From positions 384,001 through 448,000 of the forward strand of contig CAWGYD010000004.1 in the NCBI GenBank assembly GCA_963826785.1: a stretch of DNA of 64,000 nt, read 5' to 3'. The DNA comes from an uncultured delta proteobacterium. Its GTDB lineage: Bacteria > Desulfobacterota > Desulfobacteria > Desulfobacterales > Desulfosalsimonadaceae. Under the pieces are notes generated by a model. That model was not told the origin of the DNA. It saw only the letters and a program-made list of their open reading frames with translations, and did no database searches. Below, piece after piece: positions 10,484 through 33,627 of the stretch. Position 1 is the first letter of the stretch. Every line of letters begins with the position of its first letter. The position numbers were made by a program, and so were the translations under genes.

Positions 10484-10999
10484 CTAAGGGAGGAGGCTGT
10501 ATACATCCACCGGCGGGTTTTCGTTTTCCGCCTCTCCCTTGTCCTTCCCGCCGACGGCCAGCCCCGCCACCTTGTAAAAGTTGTAATCCGGGTATTTTCC
10601 CGGTCCGCTGATCATCAGGTCTTTTTTTTCGTACACCATGTTCTGCCGGACATATTCGCAGTATTCGAAATCCGGCGTCAGCTGGATGGCATAGGTGGGG
10701 CAGGCCTCCTCACAGTAGCCGCACAGGATGCAGCGGGAAAAATTGATCCGGAAAAAAGCCGGATACCGGCGTCCCGATTCATCTTCTGCGGCCTGCAGGG
10801 CGATGCAGTCCACCGGACAGGCTACCGCGCACAGGTAGCAGGCCACGCAGCGCTCCTTGCCGTCCGGGTCGCACGAAAGGATGATGCGGCCCCTGAAGCG
10901 CGGCGGCAGGTAAATCTTTTCATCCGGATACTGCACCGTCACCCGTTTCCGGAAGGTGTGCCGCAGGATGACCCAGATCGATTCAAGTATGGAGATCAA
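10484..10999 (-). CDS. nuoI: NADH-quinone oxidoreductase subunit I
   Basis: TVQYP, RFRGR, two ferredoxin motifs [12 protein letters not shown] and [12 protein letters not shown]. Confidence 0.95.
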
Positions 11000-11014
11000 A
11001 GCAAACCCCTAATC

Positions 11015-11160
11015 AGTGCCTGAACGGAAAGTGCAGATTTTGGTTCAAGACAAGGCCGCCGGAATTTTTTGACCGCAGGCGTAGTGTGGCTACGTTGAGG
11101 ATCAAAAAATTCCAAAGAACGCAGTATTGGGCCAAAAGATGTGCTTTCCGTTCTGGCACT
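11015..11160 (+). repeat. ~146-nt long-hairpin structured element, copy A (MITE-like or ncRNA), between nuoH and nuoI
   Basis: Nested inverted repeats: AGTGCC(T)GAACGGAAAG/CTTTCCGTTC(T)GGCACT, TTTTGGTTCAA/TTGGGCCAAAA, GGAATTTTTTGA/TCAAAAAATTCC, GCGTAG/CTACGT. Confidence 0.85.
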
Positions 11161-12112
11161 ATCTGAATGCCAGCAGTACGCCGGCGGTTCCCACCAGGTT
11201 CAACAGGCTCACCGGCAGCAGGATTTTCCAGGCCACCGCCATGAGCTGATCATAGCGGGGCCGGGGCAATGCCGCCCGCATCAGGATAAAGCCGCACGCA
11301 AACACGAACATCTTGATCAGAAACCAGACGACCGGCGGCAGAAAAGGGCCCAGCCATCCGCCGAAGAACATCGTGGTGATCAGGCACGAGATCAGCAGGA
11401 TGCTCAAATATTCGCCCACGAAGAAAAGCCCGAATTTCATTCCCGAATACTCGGTGTGGTAGCCGGCCACCAGCTCGCTTTCCGCCTCGGGAAGATCGAA
11501 GGGAAGCCGGTGGGATTCGGCCAGGCCGGCAATCAAAAAGGGCACCATGCCGAGAAACTGGGGGCCGCAGAACCACATCCCCTTCTGGGCCTCCACGATT
11601 TCGACCAGGTTGAAGGAGCCGGTCATCATCACCACTCCCATGAGGGACAGGCCCATGAACACCTCGTAGCTGAGCAGCTGGGCAGCGGCCCGCACCCCGC
11701 CCAGCAGGGAATATTTGCTGTGCGACGCCCATCCTCCCAGGATCACGCTGTAGACGCCCAGGGAGAACATGGCCAGGAAGAAGAGCACCCCGATGTTGAG
11801 ATTGGTGATGAAAATGTCCTGGGCAAAAGGCACCACGGCAAAGGAGAGCAGAACGGTCATCAGCAGTATGGCCGGCGCCGCGATAAACACCATCCGGTCC
11901 GCAAAAGGCGGGACCCAGTCCTCCTTGAAAAAGATCTTGAGCATGTCCGCCACCACCTGAAGAAGGCCGAAAGGCCCCACCCGGTTGGGTCCGTACCGGT
12001 CCTGCCACACCCCCAGCAGGCGCCGCTCCACCCAGATCATCATGGCGCTTCCCGTCAGGGCGAAGATCAGGACCCCGAATACGATCAGCAGGTGACGCAG
12101 TATTTCAGGCAT
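11159..12112 (-). CDS. nuoH: NADH-quinone oxidoreductase subunit H
   Basis: ERR..QDRYGPNRVGPFG, KYSLLGG.R, SYEV, RLPFDLPEAESELVAGYHTEYSG; start placed at MPEIL after a GGAGG RBS. Confidence 0.95.
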   Translation of the reverse strand: MPEILRHLLIVFGVLIFALTGSAMMIWVERRLLGVWQDRYGPNRVGPFGLLQVVADMLKIFFKEDWVPPFADRMVFIAAPAILLMTVLLSFAVVPFAQDIFITNLNIGVLFFLAMFSLGVYSVILGGWASHSKYSLLGGVRAAAQLLSYEVFMGLSLMGVVMMTGSFNLVEIVEAQKGMWFCGPQFLGMVPFLIAGLAESHRLPFDLPEAESELVAGYHTEYSGMKFGLFFVGEYLSILLISCLITTMFFGGWLGPFLPPVVWFLIKMFVFACGFILMRAALPRPRYDQLMAVAWKILLPVSLLNLVGTAGVLLAFR

Positions 12113-14834
12113 GATCTTTCCTCCTTTGGATCGAGACCACCTCCCGCTTAAAAGCCCCCTGGCGTTTTGTGAGCCCGACCGGAAGCCCGGCGGTTTGGGC
12201 TGCAAGGCCGGGCATGATCCGCACCGGCAGGTCCAGCACCGTTTCTCCCAGTGTGACGCTCACCATGTCTTCGGCCTCGATTCCCATAGACGCCGCATCC
12301 TCGGGGGAAAGCGCCAGATAGGGGGCCGGAGCCCGGGCTGCGATACCGGGTGCATGCATGCTCAGTTCTTCCGAGCCGAATACGTGGTGGATGGGGACCA
12401 GGTGCCGCTGATTCTCCCCCAGTTTCCGGATCGGCGGGATATTTGAAAAATATGCGCCTTTTTCTTCCGGGGAGCTCTTGAGCAACTTGTTTCCCGCGCT
12501 TCCGCCGCGCAGGGGCCCGGCGATTTCCTCCTGGAATTTTTTGAGCGACTGCACCGAATTCCATCCGGGCCACCAGAACCGGGGGATCAGGGCGGCCGGG
12601 GGGAGGGGCGCTTCGTGTCCTTCCATGGAAAAGACCAGGGGCGCATCACGGTCATTTGCCGGCGGAAATTCATGGACGTTGACATTTGCGTGCATGGCGG
12701 TCCGGCCGCTGTAGCGATGACTCTGGCGCGGGACTTTGCGGCCCACGATGCGAAAGGCTGCATCCGGCGCTGCTTTTGCCGGATCGGCCCCCTCCGGCAG
12801 GGATGCGGTCATGGCGGCCAGCACATCATCGATTGTCTGCCATTTCCCGACCGGGAGCCGGCCCGCGGCAGAGGCCATATCCCGAATCCAGCGCCAGCTG
12901 TCGCGCACGCCGTTGCTGGGGGCATATACCTGGAAATACCGCTGGGCACGGCCTTCATTGTTGACCAGTGTGCCGGTCGACTCGGCGAAAACCGTTGCCG
13001 GAAGCACCAGATCCGCCCGTTTGGTGGTGGCGTGCGCCAGGTGGTCCAGGCAGATGACATGCCGGGCGGCGGCCAGGATTTTTTCGGCCCGATCCGCATC
13101 GATCCGGTCGAACAGATCATTTTCCAGGATGACCAGCGTGTCGGCCTGCCCGTTTTGAAGGGCGTCAAGGGCGCTGTCCAGCCCCCCCCGCCCTCCCAGA
13201 AGCCCCAGTCCCAGGCTGTTGCACTCGTCAAAAGTGTAAAGCAGCCGTGCATCCAAACCCGCGGCATGCAGCGCCAAGGCGACATCGGCGGCGGCTTCCA
13301 GCAGGGGAAGGCTGCCATACCCGGTTCCTGAAATCACCATGGGGCGCCTGGCCTTGCCGAGGCCCTCGGCAATGGAGGCGGCCGAATCCCGCAGGTCATC
13401 GGGCAGGCCTTCTACCGGAGGGGCCGACGGATCCAGGAGGGAGGCCACCTGCGATCCCAGGCGCGCCATGTTGTCGCGGTCGGTGCAGCAGACGCGCTTG
13501 GCCACGTTATCCAGGCGGGTGGGATAGGCCGTGGCGATATATAAGGTTTCCTTTTCATATTGGGCGACTTCCCGGAGGCCGGCGTCGTCCCATGCCGGTA
13601 TCCGGGTGCTGCGGGCGATCCGGGCCGCCTGGAGGTGGATGAGCTGGCGCAGTTTCAATGCCAGGATGGGGGCGGTGTCGGAAACATTTTCTCCCAGCAC
13701 GAATACCGCATCCGATTCGGCGGCTTCCCGAAGCGATCCCACTGGAACGGGGCTCTTTGCGAGAATGTCTGCGGCCCGGTGCAGGATCTGCCAGTCCGGT
13801 TCGGACAACCCGGCAAAAAAATGATCGGCCCCGGCAAGGGCCTTTAGCATGAAATTGGACTCAAGGGAGGCCCGGGGCGATCCGATGCAGATAACCGACC
13901 GGGCGTTTTTTATCATGGCGGCGGCCATGGCCAGGGCGATGTCTTTATCGATCGGCTGCAAAGGCGCCTTTTTTTGCACGCGGCGCATGGGCTGGCGGAT
14001 CCGCTTTTCGCTGTTGACGAATTCATAGCCGTAGCGGCCCCGGTCGCACAGAAAGTAGCCGTTGATATCGTGGTGGTAGCGGTTGCGGATGCGCCGCAGT
14101 TCACCGTAGCGTTCGCCGGGGATGGTGTTGCACCCCAGGCTGCAGTGGACGCAGACCGAGGGGGCGGTCTGAAGGTCCCATTTTCGGGTGTAATGGCGCT
14201 TTAAGGTCTTGTCGGTGAACACCCCGGTGGGGCAGACCTCCACCAGGTTTCCGGAAAACTCGTTTTCCAGGGTGCCGCTTCCGGACCGGCCGAAAAAAAC
14301 GTGATCATGGCAGCCAAAGGCGTTGAGATCCCGGCCGCCGGCATAATCGCGGTAAAAACGGACACAGCGGTAGCACTGGATGCAGCGGTTCATCTCGTGG
14401 TTGATGAAGGGGCCCAGATCCTGGTTGCGATAGGTGCGTTTGTTGAAGCGGTAGTGCCGGTAGTTGTGGCCGGTCATCACCGTCATGTCCTGGAGATGGC
14501 ATTCCCCCCCTTCGTCGCAGACCGGGCAGTCATGGGGGTGGTTGACCATCAGCCACTCGATAATGCTGGCCCGGAACTGCCGGACCTCTTCGTCGTCAAT
14601 GGAAATCCGGGTGCCGTCTTCGGCCGGAGTCATGCAGGACATGACGATGCGGCCCTTCTTGTCGTCTTCATCCTTGAACTGCTTGACCGCGCACTGGCGG
14701 CAGGCCCCCACCGACCCCATGGCCGGATGCCAGCAGAAATACGGGATGTCAAAGCCCAGGGAAAGGCAGGCATTGAGCAGGTTCTGGCCTTCCTTCACCT
14801 CGTAGGGTTTGTCATCGATGTAGATGGTCGGCAT
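12105..14834 (-). CDS. nuoG: NADH-quinone oxidoreductase subunit G (long, E. coli type)
   Basis: 909 aa; IPYFCWHP..GACRQC, HPHDCPVCDEGGECHLQD, CIQCYRCVR, CVHCSLGC (N7-type motif). Confidence 0.95.
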   Translation of the reverse strand: MPTIYIDDKPYEVKEGQNLLNACLSLGFDIPYFCWHPAMGSVGACRQCAVKQFKDEDDKKGRIVMSCMTPAEDGTRISIDDEEVRQFRASIIEWLMVNHPHDCPVCDEGGECHLQDMTVMTGHNYRHYRFNKRTYRNQDLGPFINHEMNRCIQCYRCVRFYRDYAGGRDLNAFGCHDHVFFGRSGSGTLENEFSGNLVEVCPTGVFTDKTLKRHYTRKWDLQTAPSVCVHCSLGCNTIPGERYGELRRIRNRYHHDINGYFLCDRGRYGYEFVNSEKRIRQPMRRVQKKAPLQPIDKDIALAMAAAMIKNARSVICIGSPRASLESNFMLKALAGADHFFAGLSEPDWQILHRAADILAKSPVPVGSLREAAESDAVFVLGENVSDTAPILALKLRQLIHLQAARIARSTRIPAWDDAGLREVAQYEKETLYIATAYPTRLDNVAKRVCCTDRDNMARLGSQVASLLDPSAPPVEGLPDDLRDSAASIAEGLGKARRPMVISGTGYGSLPLLEAAADVALALHAAGLDARLLYTFDECNSLGLGLLGGRGGLDSALDALQNGQADTLVILENDLFDRIDADRAEKILAAARHVICLDHLAHATTKRADLVLPATVFAESTGTLVNNEGRAQRYFQVYAPSNGVRDSWRWIRDMASAAGRLPVGKWQTIDDVLAAMTASLPEGADPAKAAPDAAFRIVGRKVPRQSHRYSGRTAMHANVNVHEFPPANDRDAPLVFSMEGHEAPLPPAALIPRFWWPGWNSVQSLKKFQEEIAGPLRGGSAGNKLLKSSPEEKGAYFSNIPPIRKLGENQRHLVPIHHVFGSEELSMHAPGIAARAPAPYLALSPEDAASMGIEAEDMVSVTLGETVLDLPVRIMPGLAAQTAGLPVGLTKRQGAFKREVVSIQRRKDHA

Positions 14835-18581: not shown

Positions 18582-19220
18582 TCAAACCTCGTCCGGCGGC
18601 CGCAGCAGCGTGGCTTCCCGGCGTCTTTCCCGGGCCTCGTCGCGCATCGAGGGCGCCGGCTCCTTGTAGATTTCCTGGGGACCGACCATGTAGCTCAGCG
18701 GCCGCCTTTCGCTTCCCACCGCTTTCTGCAGCAGTCCCAACCCCTGCATGAAGGCGCCGGGGCTGGGGGGGCACCCCGGGACGTAGACATCCACCGGCAG
18801 GATCTTGTCCACGCCCTGAATCACGGAATAGATGTCGTACATGCCGCCGGAATTGGCGCAGGACCCCATGGAAATCACCCATTTGGGTTCCATCATCTGT
18901 TCATAGAGCCGCAGGATCAGGGGGGCGCATTTGAGAAAGGGAGTTCCTGCAATGACCATCAGGTCCGCTTCCCGGGGAGATGCCCGGATGACCTCGGCCC
19001 CGAACCGGGCGATGTCGTACTTGCTGGTCAGGCTGGTGGCCATTTCCACATAGCAGCACGACAGTCCGAAATTAAACGGCCACAGCGAGTTCTTCCGGCC
19101 CCAGCTGACCAGCCGCTCAAGCGTTGAAAGGACCACGCTGCGCCGCATGGCATCTTCCAGCGGGTCGGTCTGCTGTCCGGGGATCTCCAGTTTCCCCCGG
19201 GAATTTTTTAACCACCGCAT
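18582..19220 (-). CDS. nuoB: NADH-quinone oxidoreductase subunit B
   Basis: [38 protein letters not shown]. Confidence 0.95.
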
Positions 19221-19286: not shown

Positions 19287-19431
19287 GGTGTCCACTCAGA
19301 GATGGTGGATTTGGGTTCAGGCCGAGGCCGCAGGGGTTTGGAAACCGGAGGCGCAGCAGCGCTGCGTTGAGGATTTCCAAATCACGAGAACGAAGGCCTG
19401 GGCCCAAAGACGCCATTTCTGAGTGGACACC
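19287..19431 (+). repeat. ~145-nt long-hairpin structured element, copy B, between CBS gene and nuoB
   Basis: GGTGTCCACTCAGAGATGGTG/CGCCATTTCTGAGTGGACACC, TTTGGGTTCAGGCC/GGCCTGGGCCCAAA, TTTGGAAA/TTTCCAAA, GCGCAG/CTGCGT; same loop motifs as copy A. Confidence 0.85.
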
Positions 19432-19865
19432 TACTTCCATCCCTTGATGTAATCTTCCAATTGTTCGATGACGAACTGCTTGTGGGTAATGATCCCCTTG
19501 ACGATGTCGCCGATGGAAATGATGCCCGCCACCTGTTCGTTTTCGATTACCGGCAGGTGCCGCACCCGTTTATGGGTCAGCAGTTCCATGCATTCCTCCA
19601 GGTTCTTGTCCGGATCGACGGTAATCACTTCGGTGGTCATGATCTCGCTGACCAGCAGATCCTGGGAGCGCTTCCCCTTCAGGATGACCTTCCGGGCATA
19701 ATCGCGTTCGGAAATCAGGCCGATGATGCGTTTGTCCTTGAGCACCAGCAGCGCCCCGATATTTTTTTCGGCCATGATGCCCAGTGCCTCGTAGACCGTT
19801 TGATCGGGTGCAATGGACTCCACCCGGGTCCCTTTGTCCCTGAGGATATCCCTGACTTTTCTCAT
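19431..19865 (-). CDS. Tandem CBS-domain protein inside the nuo operon
   Basis: MRKVRDIL..NIGALLV..GLISERDY..VSEIMT..RHLPV..GIISIGDIVK; ATGA overlap with the nuoA stop. Confidence 0.9.
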   Translation of the reverse strand: MRKVRDILRDKGTRVESIAPDQTVYEALGIMAEKNIGALLVLKDKRIIGLISERDYARKVILKGKRSQDLLVSEIMTTEVITVDPDKNLEECMELLTHKRVRHLPVIENEQVAGIISIGDIVKGIITHKQFVIEQLEDYIKGWK

Positions 19866-20293
19866 GATGTCCCCCCCTTTGATTGAGGTTCCGATTTCCG
19901 GCGGGCCTTGAGATACCGGATCGTGCCCCAGTCCAGCGCCCCGTTGCGCCAGAGATAGACCAGCGCCGCCAGCAGGATGGCGATGAAAATGTTGATCTCG
20001 ATATAACCGGCCCATCCCAGGTCACGAAAAGTGACCGCATACAGATAGACGAAAATGGCCTCCAGATCGAAGATGACGAAAAACATGGCCATCAGGTAGA
20101 ATTTGGCGGCAAAGCGGACATTGGCCGACCCCGTCGAAACCAGTCCTGATTCGTATGTTTCTTTTGCCGCACCATCCCGCCGGCTGCGATGCTGACCCAG
20201 CACGGCGGAGAGTGCGATGATCAAACCGGTCAGGCCCGCCACGCAGAAAAAGTAGAGGACCAGCGGCCAGAGTAAAAGGTTTGACGAATTCAA
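19862..20293 (-). CDS. nuoA: NADH-quinone oxidoreductase subunit A
   Basis: YESG, KFYLMAMFFVIFDLEA, YLWRNGALDW; exact start uncertain (TTG). Confidence 0.92.
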   Translation of the reverse strand: MNSSNLLLWPLVLYFFCVAGLTGLIIALSAVLGQHRSRRDGAAKETYESGLVSTGSANVRFAAKFYLMAMFFVIFDLEAIFVYLYAVTFRDLGWAGYIEINIFIAILLAALVYLWRNGALDWGTIRYLKARRKSEPQSKGGTS

Positions 20294-32289: not shown

Positions 32290-32630
32290 CCTTCCTTTTC
32301 AAATATGCAGGGCCGCTAAGTAGATGCCGGCCCCGTTGGTGGAAAATGCGAACCGCACCAAAAGTTTTTCGGCATACCGCTTGGCCTGGGCCAGCCCCTC
32401 GGTGTCGGCACATCCCGGCGCTTGGCCTCGATCACGGCAAGCTTCTGGCCCCGGTAGATCAACACATAATCGGCAATCTCAGCTTTTGCCCGCTGCCCCG
32501 CCCCCTGAATCCGGCCCGGCGCGATCACCTCCCGGCCGATCCGGCTGGCTGCCACCAAGGCCCATCCGGCGGCCTTTAAAGCCGGATCAATCAGTTCGGC
32601 GCGGGTTTCGGCTTCATTCATCGGCGACAT
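32290..32630 (-). pseudogene. hsdR: Type I restriction subunit HsdR, N-terminal remnant (EcoEI/EcoAI-like)
   Basis: MNEAETRAELIDPAL..GW, ADYVL, LAVIEAK, then frameshifted G.AQAKRYA..L..FSTNG; no helicase domain follows. Confidence 0.85.
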
Positions 32631-33627
32631 CCCGGATCAGCATGTTCATGATCAGCCGTATCATAGTCTCCTTGTTGACGGGATCGGATTCGGCCACCAG
32701 CAGCGTGAGGGCGGTCAGCCCGATATCATTTATTACCGGCTCCCCCTGCTGGTTTGCCAGCCGGCCGTTCCGGTGCAGAAAATCGATAAAGAGAAAGGCC
32801 GCACTGCGCTTGTTGCCGTCGGCAAACGGGTGGTTTTTGACCACAAAGTAGAGCAGATGCGCCGCCTTTGCCTCCACGCTGGGATAGGCCGGCTCACCGA
32901 ACACCGTCTGATCCAGGTTGCCCAGCAGCGCGGCCAGGCCGTCTTTGTTTTCCCGCGCAAACAGGTCGGTGGCTTCTCCGCGGGCCATCAAATCGGCTTT
33001 CAATCCGGCCAGCGCAGCCCTGGCTTCGTTCACCGAAGGCAGGCGTCCGCCGGATTCCGCCCTGGGCTCGGTCAGCAGCCCCTCGTCATAGCGCTGCAGC
33101 AGTAAAAAAGTCTGGGCATACCGGGTGATGATCTCCACCAGACCCCGCCCGCTGTCGGTAGTCAGCTCCCGGCTCCGGGCGGCCTTGTGCACCAGGTCCA
33201 TGGCCGCTTCCAGCTCCCGGGCGTTTTCCTCGAAGCGCCGCCGGTTCAGGGTCCAGCCCCGGGTGAGATGCTCCCGCAGCACCCGGGTGGCCCACTGGCG
33301 AAATCGGGTGCCCTGATGCGATTTAACCCGATAACCTACTGATATAATGATATCCAAATTGTAATGCTCTATCTCCCGTGAAACCCTCCTGGAACCCTCC
33401 TGGCGAACTATCCGGAATTTCCGGATGGTTGGTTTCCGCTCAAGTTCACACTCGGCAAAAACATTCTGGATATGCTCATTCACCGTTCGCACATCCTTGC
33501 CGAAAAGCGATGACATCTGCTTCTGTGTCAACCATACAGTGTCACTCTCGGGGTCCAGCAGCACCTCTACCGGTTTATTGGCATCCTGATAAATAACGAC
33601 AGCGCCTTGGGTGTCGGCATTGTTCAT
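32614..33627 (-). CDS. RhuM-like N-terminal domain fused to Fic/Doc domain
   Basis: WLTQKQMS.LF, EHYNLDIIISVGYRVKS..G..FR.WA (RhuM-like); HPFADGNKR (Fic/Doc motif). Confidence 0.9.
   Translation of the reverse strand: MNNADTQGAVVIYQDANKPVEVLLDPESDTVWLTQKQMSSLFGKDVRTVNEHIQNVFAECELERKPTIRKFRIVRQEGSRRVSREIEHYNLDIIISVGYRVKSHQGTRFRQWATRVLREHLTRGWTLNRRRFEENARELEAAMDLVHKAARSRELTTDSGRGLVEIITRYAQTFLLLQRYDEGLLTEPRAESGGRLPSVNEARAALAGLKADLMARGEATDLFARENKDGLAALLGNLDQTVFGEPAYPSVEAKAAHLLYFVVKNHPFADGNKRSAAFLFIDFLHRNGRLANQQGEPVINDIGLTALTLLVAESDPVNKETMIRLIMNMLIRDVADE

Follow-up and report, generated by a model that had tools for sequence, protein, structure and literature searches.

We find that two copies of a structured repeat, A and B, which lie in the nuo operon within the 64,000-nucleotide stretch of DNA analysed here (the window), are MITEs that combine an ERIC-type core with exchangeable ends and are probably moved in trans by DDE transposases of the IS5 clan. 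Both copies are short, non-coding, multicopy and intergenic, they carry the terminal inverted repeats (TIRs) of insertion sequences (IS), and their sites are empty in a relative; a target duplication is found at the level of the family and is inexact at both window copies. The preliminary description had proposed either an ncRNA or a non-autonomous mobile element, and it is the mobile element that the IS-type TIRs, the family duplications and the empty sites in genome G010 support.

Reading the sequence, fold and ends together places copy A, a 144-bp MITE, at 11016..11159 and copy B, a 143-bp MITE, at 19288..19430, each with its structured side on the plus strand. Both copies are thus real where they had been described (11015-11160 and 19287-19431), with exact ends one terminal pair shorter. 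The nuo operon lies on the minus strand, and the positions of the host genes confirm that the structured strand is antisense to nuo. Copy A sits between nuoH (NADHdh, 11159..12205, minus), whose stop codon overlaps it, and nuoI (Fer4, 10484..10999, minus), which starts 16 nt beyond it. Copy B abuts the TAG stop (19431-19433) of a CBS-domain gene (19431..20015, minus), which lies between nuoA (19862-20293) and nuoB and whose true start is probably later than 20015; on the other side, nuoB (Oxidored_q6, 18582..19220, minus) starts 67 nt beyond the copy. A CBS-pair gene precedes nuoB in G010 as well (window 19431-20293 here). Elsewhere, this genome has a second nuoI-like gene (C4:35505-36017), and the window holds a gene with RhuM-family and Fic domains (32614-33627, minus).

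The two copies have 92 of 144 positions in common, and no ORF of at least 100 aa was found inside either, so neither encodes a DDE transposase. The left arm of copy A (11016..11030, plus) is identical over 15 nt to the left ends of clade-1 ISNCY elements of family NF033593 (e.g. L360, L408 and L411), and its right arm (11145..11159, minus) agrees with the clade-1 TIR at 14 of 15 positions, its last base being the G of the nuoH TAG stop. The right arm of copy B (19413..19430, minus) is identical at 16 of 18 positions to the right end of a clade-2 ISNCY element (L431), and the left arm (19288..19305) differs from the L431-type end at one further base. Between the arms of copy A, the core (11033..11142, plus) presents a GA/GA loop, an AAGG/RACGCA loop around an invariant G-C pair, a GSA/GA loop and an apical TA/TA, and scores 92.2 bits with our core model R2; the core of copy B (19305..19413, plus) scores 83.0 bits, both copies being in the training set. 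To the left of copy A stands TAATCA (11010..11015, plus), which fits a TANNNA target, while the right flank (11160-11165) has diverged, so that copy A retains no exact target duplication; copy B has none either.

Both sites are empty in G010, the only relative close enough to align, where the spacers measure 12 and 18 nt as opposed to 156 and 210 nt here. These data bear on the reading of copies A and B as regulatory or catalytic ncRNA genes dedicated to the nuo operon, which we consider highly improbable. Strong covariation would suit such genes, as would the occurrence of two copies in one operon and of two in the nuo region of G010, and members in Geobacter have been annotated as predicted short RNAs (PMC2700814, in its accessible part). 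However, the G010 copies occupy other junctions in the opposite orientation, the number of matches among relatives ranges from 0 to about 97, and the neighbours are unrelated genes. No promoter-like or terminator-like site was found on the plus strand at either copy, and the sites are patchy and non-orthologous, so the ncRNA gene half of the original proposal was not upheld.

The arms identify the candidate transposases. A genome search for the arm sequence outside the elements located an intact ISNCY (C8:~209228-211117) whose TIRs match the arms of copy A, with TAATTA on both sides and a transposase of 492 aa at C8:209440-210918 that matches NF033593 at 527.7 bits. A second ISNCY copy (C5:195971-197442) is frameshifted and has decayed ends. 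Among 80 homologous clade-1 ISNCY loci, 60 near-complete ones were examined for their ends: 49 of the 60 have an inverted end pair by the rule we applied (about 4 spurious, about 45 of copy-A type), and 17 of the near-full loci have an exact 6-bp duplication. Clade 2, which is about 25% identical to clade 1, has ends of copy-B type at 4 of 9 new loci and at L108. Since the arms match ISNCY clades 1 and 2, the outer stems of copies A and B differ in being the ends of separate transposase clades.

Arms of a third type consist of the TIR of an IS5 element (NF033581), and further core-bearing elements have arms of the GGSTG, GCCATCTC and GATG types. We found no cognate IS for the GCCATCTC or GATG types, no transposase beside the GATG type in nine viral loci and no ISNCY relatives in viral contigs. 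In this genome, DUF772 was not found, four DDE_Tnp_1 matches lack related ends or core, and clade-2 ISNCY gave 0 matches at E<=1e-60. Clade-1 ISNCY was detected in 7 of 31 genomes, two of which (G006 and G025) have no match to the full-length model R1, and the element in 25 of 31; this co-occurrence gives no support to the pairing of IS and element, though draft genomes lose IS.

We counted target duplications in 61 elements with clear ends. Elements with GTG arms had exact 6-bp duplications in 15 of 37 cases (control 1.9), and those with GAG arms had exact 5-bp duplications in 8 of 24 and 4-bp duplications in 6 of 24 (controls 0.0 and 0.04). Our counts show that the length of the target duplication follows the arm type (6 bp vs 4-5 bp). 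Element lengths are tightly grouped as well, with 30 of 37 GTG-armed elements at 141 or 143 bp and 21 of 24 GAG-armed elements at 142 bp.

TIRs and duplications that match DDE elements also argue against movement as single-stranded DNA by an HUH (Y1/RAYT) enzyme, as in a REPIN-like repeat, a reading that we hold to be very unlikely. A fold favoured on one strand and containing G-T pairs is what such a repeat would show, this genome has five Y1 matches, one of them with a copy 316 nt upstream, and in G061 two copies flank a Y1-like gene. On the other hand, all five Y1 loci are flanked by inverted repeats of other sequence, and clustering of 818 flanking ORFs gave no recurrent partner; the largest clusters include shadow ORFs that run across an element, or else genes for unrelated housekeeping and regulatory functions. 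Replication-strand bias, which would also be relevant here, was absent (11 of 28, p=0.34, with strands inferred from GC skew). The linked HUH/Y1 partner that had been suggested was therefore not found, and what the ends and duplications indicate is a DDE transposase of the IS5/ISNCY clan.

Core and arms behave as exchangeable modules. We classified 140 elements, with arm classes assigned from loose patterns, and found that each of the two core types can have either type of ISNCY arm, and that core type II is further combined with IS5 and GGSTG arms. In this genome, ISNCY-1 and ISNCY-2 arms enclose a 71-nt core without a single difference (100% identity; the copies at C3:320223 and C5:27754), and between ISNCY and IS5 arms core identity is 96-97%; in 5 of the 140 elements, the two arms belong to different ISNCY types. 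One structured core thus likely rides on several transposases. The autonomous elements themselves had no core inside 80 clade-1 ISNCY loci, where the sole match lay outside the left end, or in two IS5 loci. In one decayed clade-2 ISNCY, a core-bearing element is nested between the stop codon and the right end with a short direct repeat flanking it; such nesting in the 3' end of an IS, observed a single time, could plausibly supply new arms.

Several other arrangements were observed. A left half of copy-B type at C6:1090680-1090890 (L094) is cut short by a core-bearing element of another subfamily and represents a nested insertion, and internally deleted copies survive as short hairpins made of the arms alone (C8:278522, C4:123454, C6:488656, C3:390269, C5:59608 and C8:315650). 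Shorter variants in the viral contigs L057, L058 and L059 keep the inner loop and have a middle stem that is shorter by about 10 bp on either side. This genome also contains an unrelated, very young family of 132-bp MITEs, with about 20 near-identical full copies (e.g. C10:28968-29099, C5:285134-285265 and C8:431106-431237), GATG-type TIRs and two small REP-like hairpins inside; its arm type is also seen on core-bearing copies. Two of its copies (C5:280852-282831 and C5:304620-306606) are interrupted by an insert of about 1.85 kb, whose ends resemble, by eye, a putative group II intron in antisense.

The plus strand of copy A folds as an unbranched rod of -76.0 kcal/mol as RNA (z -9.94) and that of copy B as one of -100.1 kcal/mol (z -13.20), with 0 of 200 shuffles as good in either case; the minus strands are weaker, at -59.3 and -75.0 kcal/mol, respectively. 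All the stems and loops quoted in the preliminary description were found in the sequence, with the refinement that the 5-nt apical loop is predicted as 3 nt and a closing pair. Across 36 diverse cores, 86% of cells are paired, two-sided changes number 275 vs 87 after shuffling, and covariation reaches 0.573 vs 0.189 for shuffled and 0.09-0.25 for slid controls, so the covariation first noticed between two copies is upheld in the family; the structure was drawn from these same sequences, which favours the score, and the 36 were hand-picked, with badly anchored rows omitted, when 47 references had been produced. In this set, the AAGG/RACGCA loop around its G-C pair and the apical TA/TA are almost invariant, and G22, A21, A91, C92 and G96 are invariant in 36 of 36.

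Mismatch types distinguish the strands. In 59 non-redundant elements among the matches listed for the exact core pattern, with pattern-fixed positions excluded, the outer stem has G-T and A-C at 87:14 and G-A and C-T at 82:5, and the arms have G-T and A-C at 38:15. The folded strand is the more stable in 58 of the 59, with RNA and with DNA parameters alike, so the energies do not separate RNA from DNA. Together with covariation above controls, the 87:14 ratio bears out the earlier claim of selection on a folded single strand: structural selection acts on one of the two strands, whose fold is kept by compensatory change. Template switching, a known property of quasi-palindromes, could in principle yield covariation as a mutational by-product with no selection on structure. 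It could homogenise arms, and internally deleted and hybrid copies exist; yet it should erase loops, whereas the five positions named above are invariant and recur in E. coli ERIC, and it predicts equal G-T and A-C on each strand. As the sole cause, template switching is contradicted by these data and is to our minds highly improbable, although it may contribute to arm exchange.

Cut-and-paste transposition does not explain a one-strand fold, since its chemistry needs no folded strand. One possibility, which we regard as tentative, is that the core is a folded-DNA module in transposition, in which the transposase or some conserved host factor would bind a hairpin or cruciform containing sheared G-A loops, and the bound structure would bring together the ends of an element of about 142 bp. 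The element would still be a MITE, with selection on DNA and not on RNA. The tight length clusters agree with such a module, as do the G-T bias that reaches into the arms, the lack of promoter-like sites on the plus strand and the compensatory changes in subfamily consensus sequences, which imply that the founders were selected. However, a cruciform would favour neither strand, leading and lagging strands are used without bias, the autonomous elements have no core, and the unrelated 132-bp MITE spreads in the same genome without one. We suggest, with less certainty than for any other part of the model, that the purine-loop strand works single-stranded, most likely as RNA. For the role of the core, RNA in transcripts has close to an even chance, folded DNA aiding transposition is less probable, and some other role slightly less probable again.

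Placement next to genes is consistent with an effect of the folded strand in mRNA. Nearly all of 84 elements are intergenic, and among those with a stop codon within 15 nt, the folded strand is antisense to the gene in 30 and sense in 9, compared to 43 antisense and 39 sense at any distance; these counts rest on heuristic gene calls in related genomes, and nuoH was missed by them, so copy A is not among the 30. A second set of 61 elements gave 13 antisense vs 6 sense (p=0.17). For the ERIC elements of Yersinia, De Gregorio and colleagues reportedly described, in 2005, one preferred orientation next to stop codons.

ERIC, known since 1990-91, proved to be the named family to which the core is related. 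Our core model R2, built without enterobacterial sequence, scored 40.3 bits (E 7.7e-8 in 15 kb) against the spacer between aceF and lpd in E. coli, at a repeat in which 20 of the 22 ERIC2 primer nucleotides are present (primer sequence from the table in PMC11734338). Of 13 E. coli ERIC-like loci related to the aceF-lpd copy, R2 matched 12, each on the equivalent strand, half of them (6) at E<=0.002 and the other 6 at 0.05-0.1, and in these alignments every loop motif is kept at nearly the same spacing and the invariant core bases recur. In a genome-wide E. coli run in which 4 candidates were scored, the best match was an ERIC copy (E 1e-7) and the second had E 0.068; the aceF-lpd copy was missed. 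The full-length model R1 did not find ERIC, whereas the core model alone did. As a negative control, no 132-bp MITE appeared among R2's 28 matches in its own genome. A 126-bp bridging copy outside the training set (C6:1081599-1081724) aligns to six ERICs with z of 4.5-5.7, while copies A and B compared with ERIC by sequence alone are not above chance (z -1.2 to 2.6). The link to ERIC thus comes from the covariance model and the bridging copy and not from the sequences of A and B. On these model alignments, the core appears homologous to ERIC, and copies A and B cannot be classed as ERICs on their sequence, size or ends.

No Rfam match at gathering score was found in the 64-kb window, and none up to E 10 for five copies from this genome. 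The statement that the repeat belongs to no named family therefore holds for Rfam and fails in two other respects, as the core is related to ERIC and members in Geobacter are listed as Gmet_R1001-R1024. The Rfam families Ysr49 (RF02766) and V_AS5 (RF02818) give weak matches, well short of the gathering score, to the folded strand of an E. coli ERIC (L124), a hint that RNAs from this strand of ERIC have already been catalogued as sRNAs.

The family is far larger than the two copies first described, which are real but belong to a set of at least 28 places in this genome according to R2 (150 of 669 candidates scored); iterated nhmmer gave 33 matches, fragments included. Covariance-model searches of the phylum, as had been advised, found further copies, with R2 matching 58 of 141 genomes and R1 matching 25 of 151; among the 31 related genomes, R1 matched 25, with 0 to 97 matches each when both strands are counted. 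The exact core pattern occurred at no fewer than 120 loci in the species collection. Among the matches listed (80 titles), most are Desulfobacterales and other deltaproteobacterial bins, and single bins carry the labels Nitrospiraceae, Nitrospirae, Methylomirabilia, Aegiribacteria, Phycisphaerae and Bacteroidales; given that bins may contain contaminants, reach beyond the phylum is indicative only. Five genomes chosen from the exact-core loci gave 7, 3, 22, at least 150 and 17 matches. Plasmid and phage collections held no match to copy A, and ten regions with tandem or inverted copy pairs had no common passenger gene. In two genomes of a single genus, tandem copies (L130 in G167:C8 and L131 in G134:C29) stand just upstream of similar small genes with no NCBIfam match, which presumably resemble ORF6N-domain proteins. 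In G108:C1, core-bearing copies (L127-L129) are part of longer repeated units in repeat-rich DNA beside rRNA operons.

From these observations we propose how the elements might move. A transposase, for copies A and B one from each of two ISNCY clades, would excise the element as double-stranded DNA and insert it at TANNNA sites. Stop codons could supply the TA, and the first G of the element can restore a TAG, so that insertions inside operons would survive. New arms would likely be gained when a core-bearing element lands in another IS or recombines with another member. A stable rod in mRNA right after a stop codon would likely be harmful and such copies would be lost, which would explain why copies near stops, A and B among them, point the other way. 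A bolder proposal, which we put forward as speculation, is that ERIC is one branch of a cross-phylum superfamily whose core is a selfish unit that captures and exchanges the ends of any IS5-clan transposase active at the time. The invariant AAGG/RACGCA and GA loops would then be a specific site, in RNA or ssDNA, at which the transposase or some conserved host factor binds and increases the spread of the core. If true, this would add a hitherto undescribed nucleic-acid-structure step to DDE transposition.

The significance of the MITE reading is that an ERIC-type core lies between ends of named transposase families, with a matching duplication length and an intact candidate transposase in the same genome. 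Matching ends and the intact transposase make the mobility of an ERIC-type element directly testable. A 2007 review gives bacterial repeats other than RUP as having no TIR matches to IS and mobilisation by transposases as having no experimental support (PMC2229807, in the accessible text). The identical core under different transposase ends shows that the interior of a MITE can be under its own selection and change vehicles, and a one-strand fold kept from Desulfobacterota to E. coli is unexplained by cut-and-paste chemistry. Were the core merely a tolerated mRNA structure, our findings would usefully extend a known repeat family and call for caution in ncRNA annotation of these genomes. In a literature search that left subscription journals mostly uncovered, we found nothing that joins ERIC, these families and cognate transposases.

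Among known systems, REP/REPIN sequences are likewise hairpin repeats in intergenic DNA, structured on one strand and frequently close to the ends of genes; they differ in that our elements have no linked RAYT and instead have DDE-type TIRs and target duplications. With ISNCY (NF033593) and IS5 (NF033581) the elements have the TIR sequence in common, and with ISNCY also the 6-bp TANNNA duplication, but a MITE encodes nothing and the autonomous elements normally have no core. Chunjie of Geobacter uraniireducens is likewise a deltaproteobacterial MITE with a stable predicted fold inside an operon, and is set apart, by its description, through a length of 178-235 bp, a 21-bp TIR and a 9-bp direct repeat (PMC3184786, in part); neither that length nor a 9-bp direct repeat was found in the elements here. 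Multicopy sequences are also listed in supplements to a Pelobacter paper (PMC3543383, accessible part).

Also comparable are Gmet_R1001-R1024 of Geobacter metallireducens, listed in 2009 as 'predicted short RNA elements' (PMC2700814), a comparison that draws on the legend and supplement of that paper. Their central palindrome, as given in the legend, is the reverse complement of the centre here; by eye, R1003, R1015 and R1021 have the same inner loop motif (Additional file 4), and rows of the R1002 type have the AAGG/RACGCA motif (supplement). They differ in being about 113 nt long and described on the opposite strand, and the accessible parts of the paper do not give ends, duplication, transposase or a link to ERIC.

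ERIC, also called IRU or RU-1, has been described from Enterobacteriaceae and Vibrionaceae (PMC10969869, accessible part), and reviews, as far as their accessible text goes, assign it to enterobacteria and vibrios and note that, in Yersinia, its effect on mRNA depends on orientation (PMC3184786, PMC2229807, PMC2267715, PMC10969869). At 127 bp, with 7-bp TIRs and TA termini (PMC2229807, Table 1), it differs from copies A and B, which measure 143-144 bp, lack the ERIC primer sites and have arms of about 20 bp that match ISNCY TIRs, with a 6-bp duplication. On the other hand, ERIC lies in intergenic, co-transcribed positions, as do the elements here (PMC2229807, accessible part), and it has the same rod, loop motifs and strand as their core, at nearly the same spacing.
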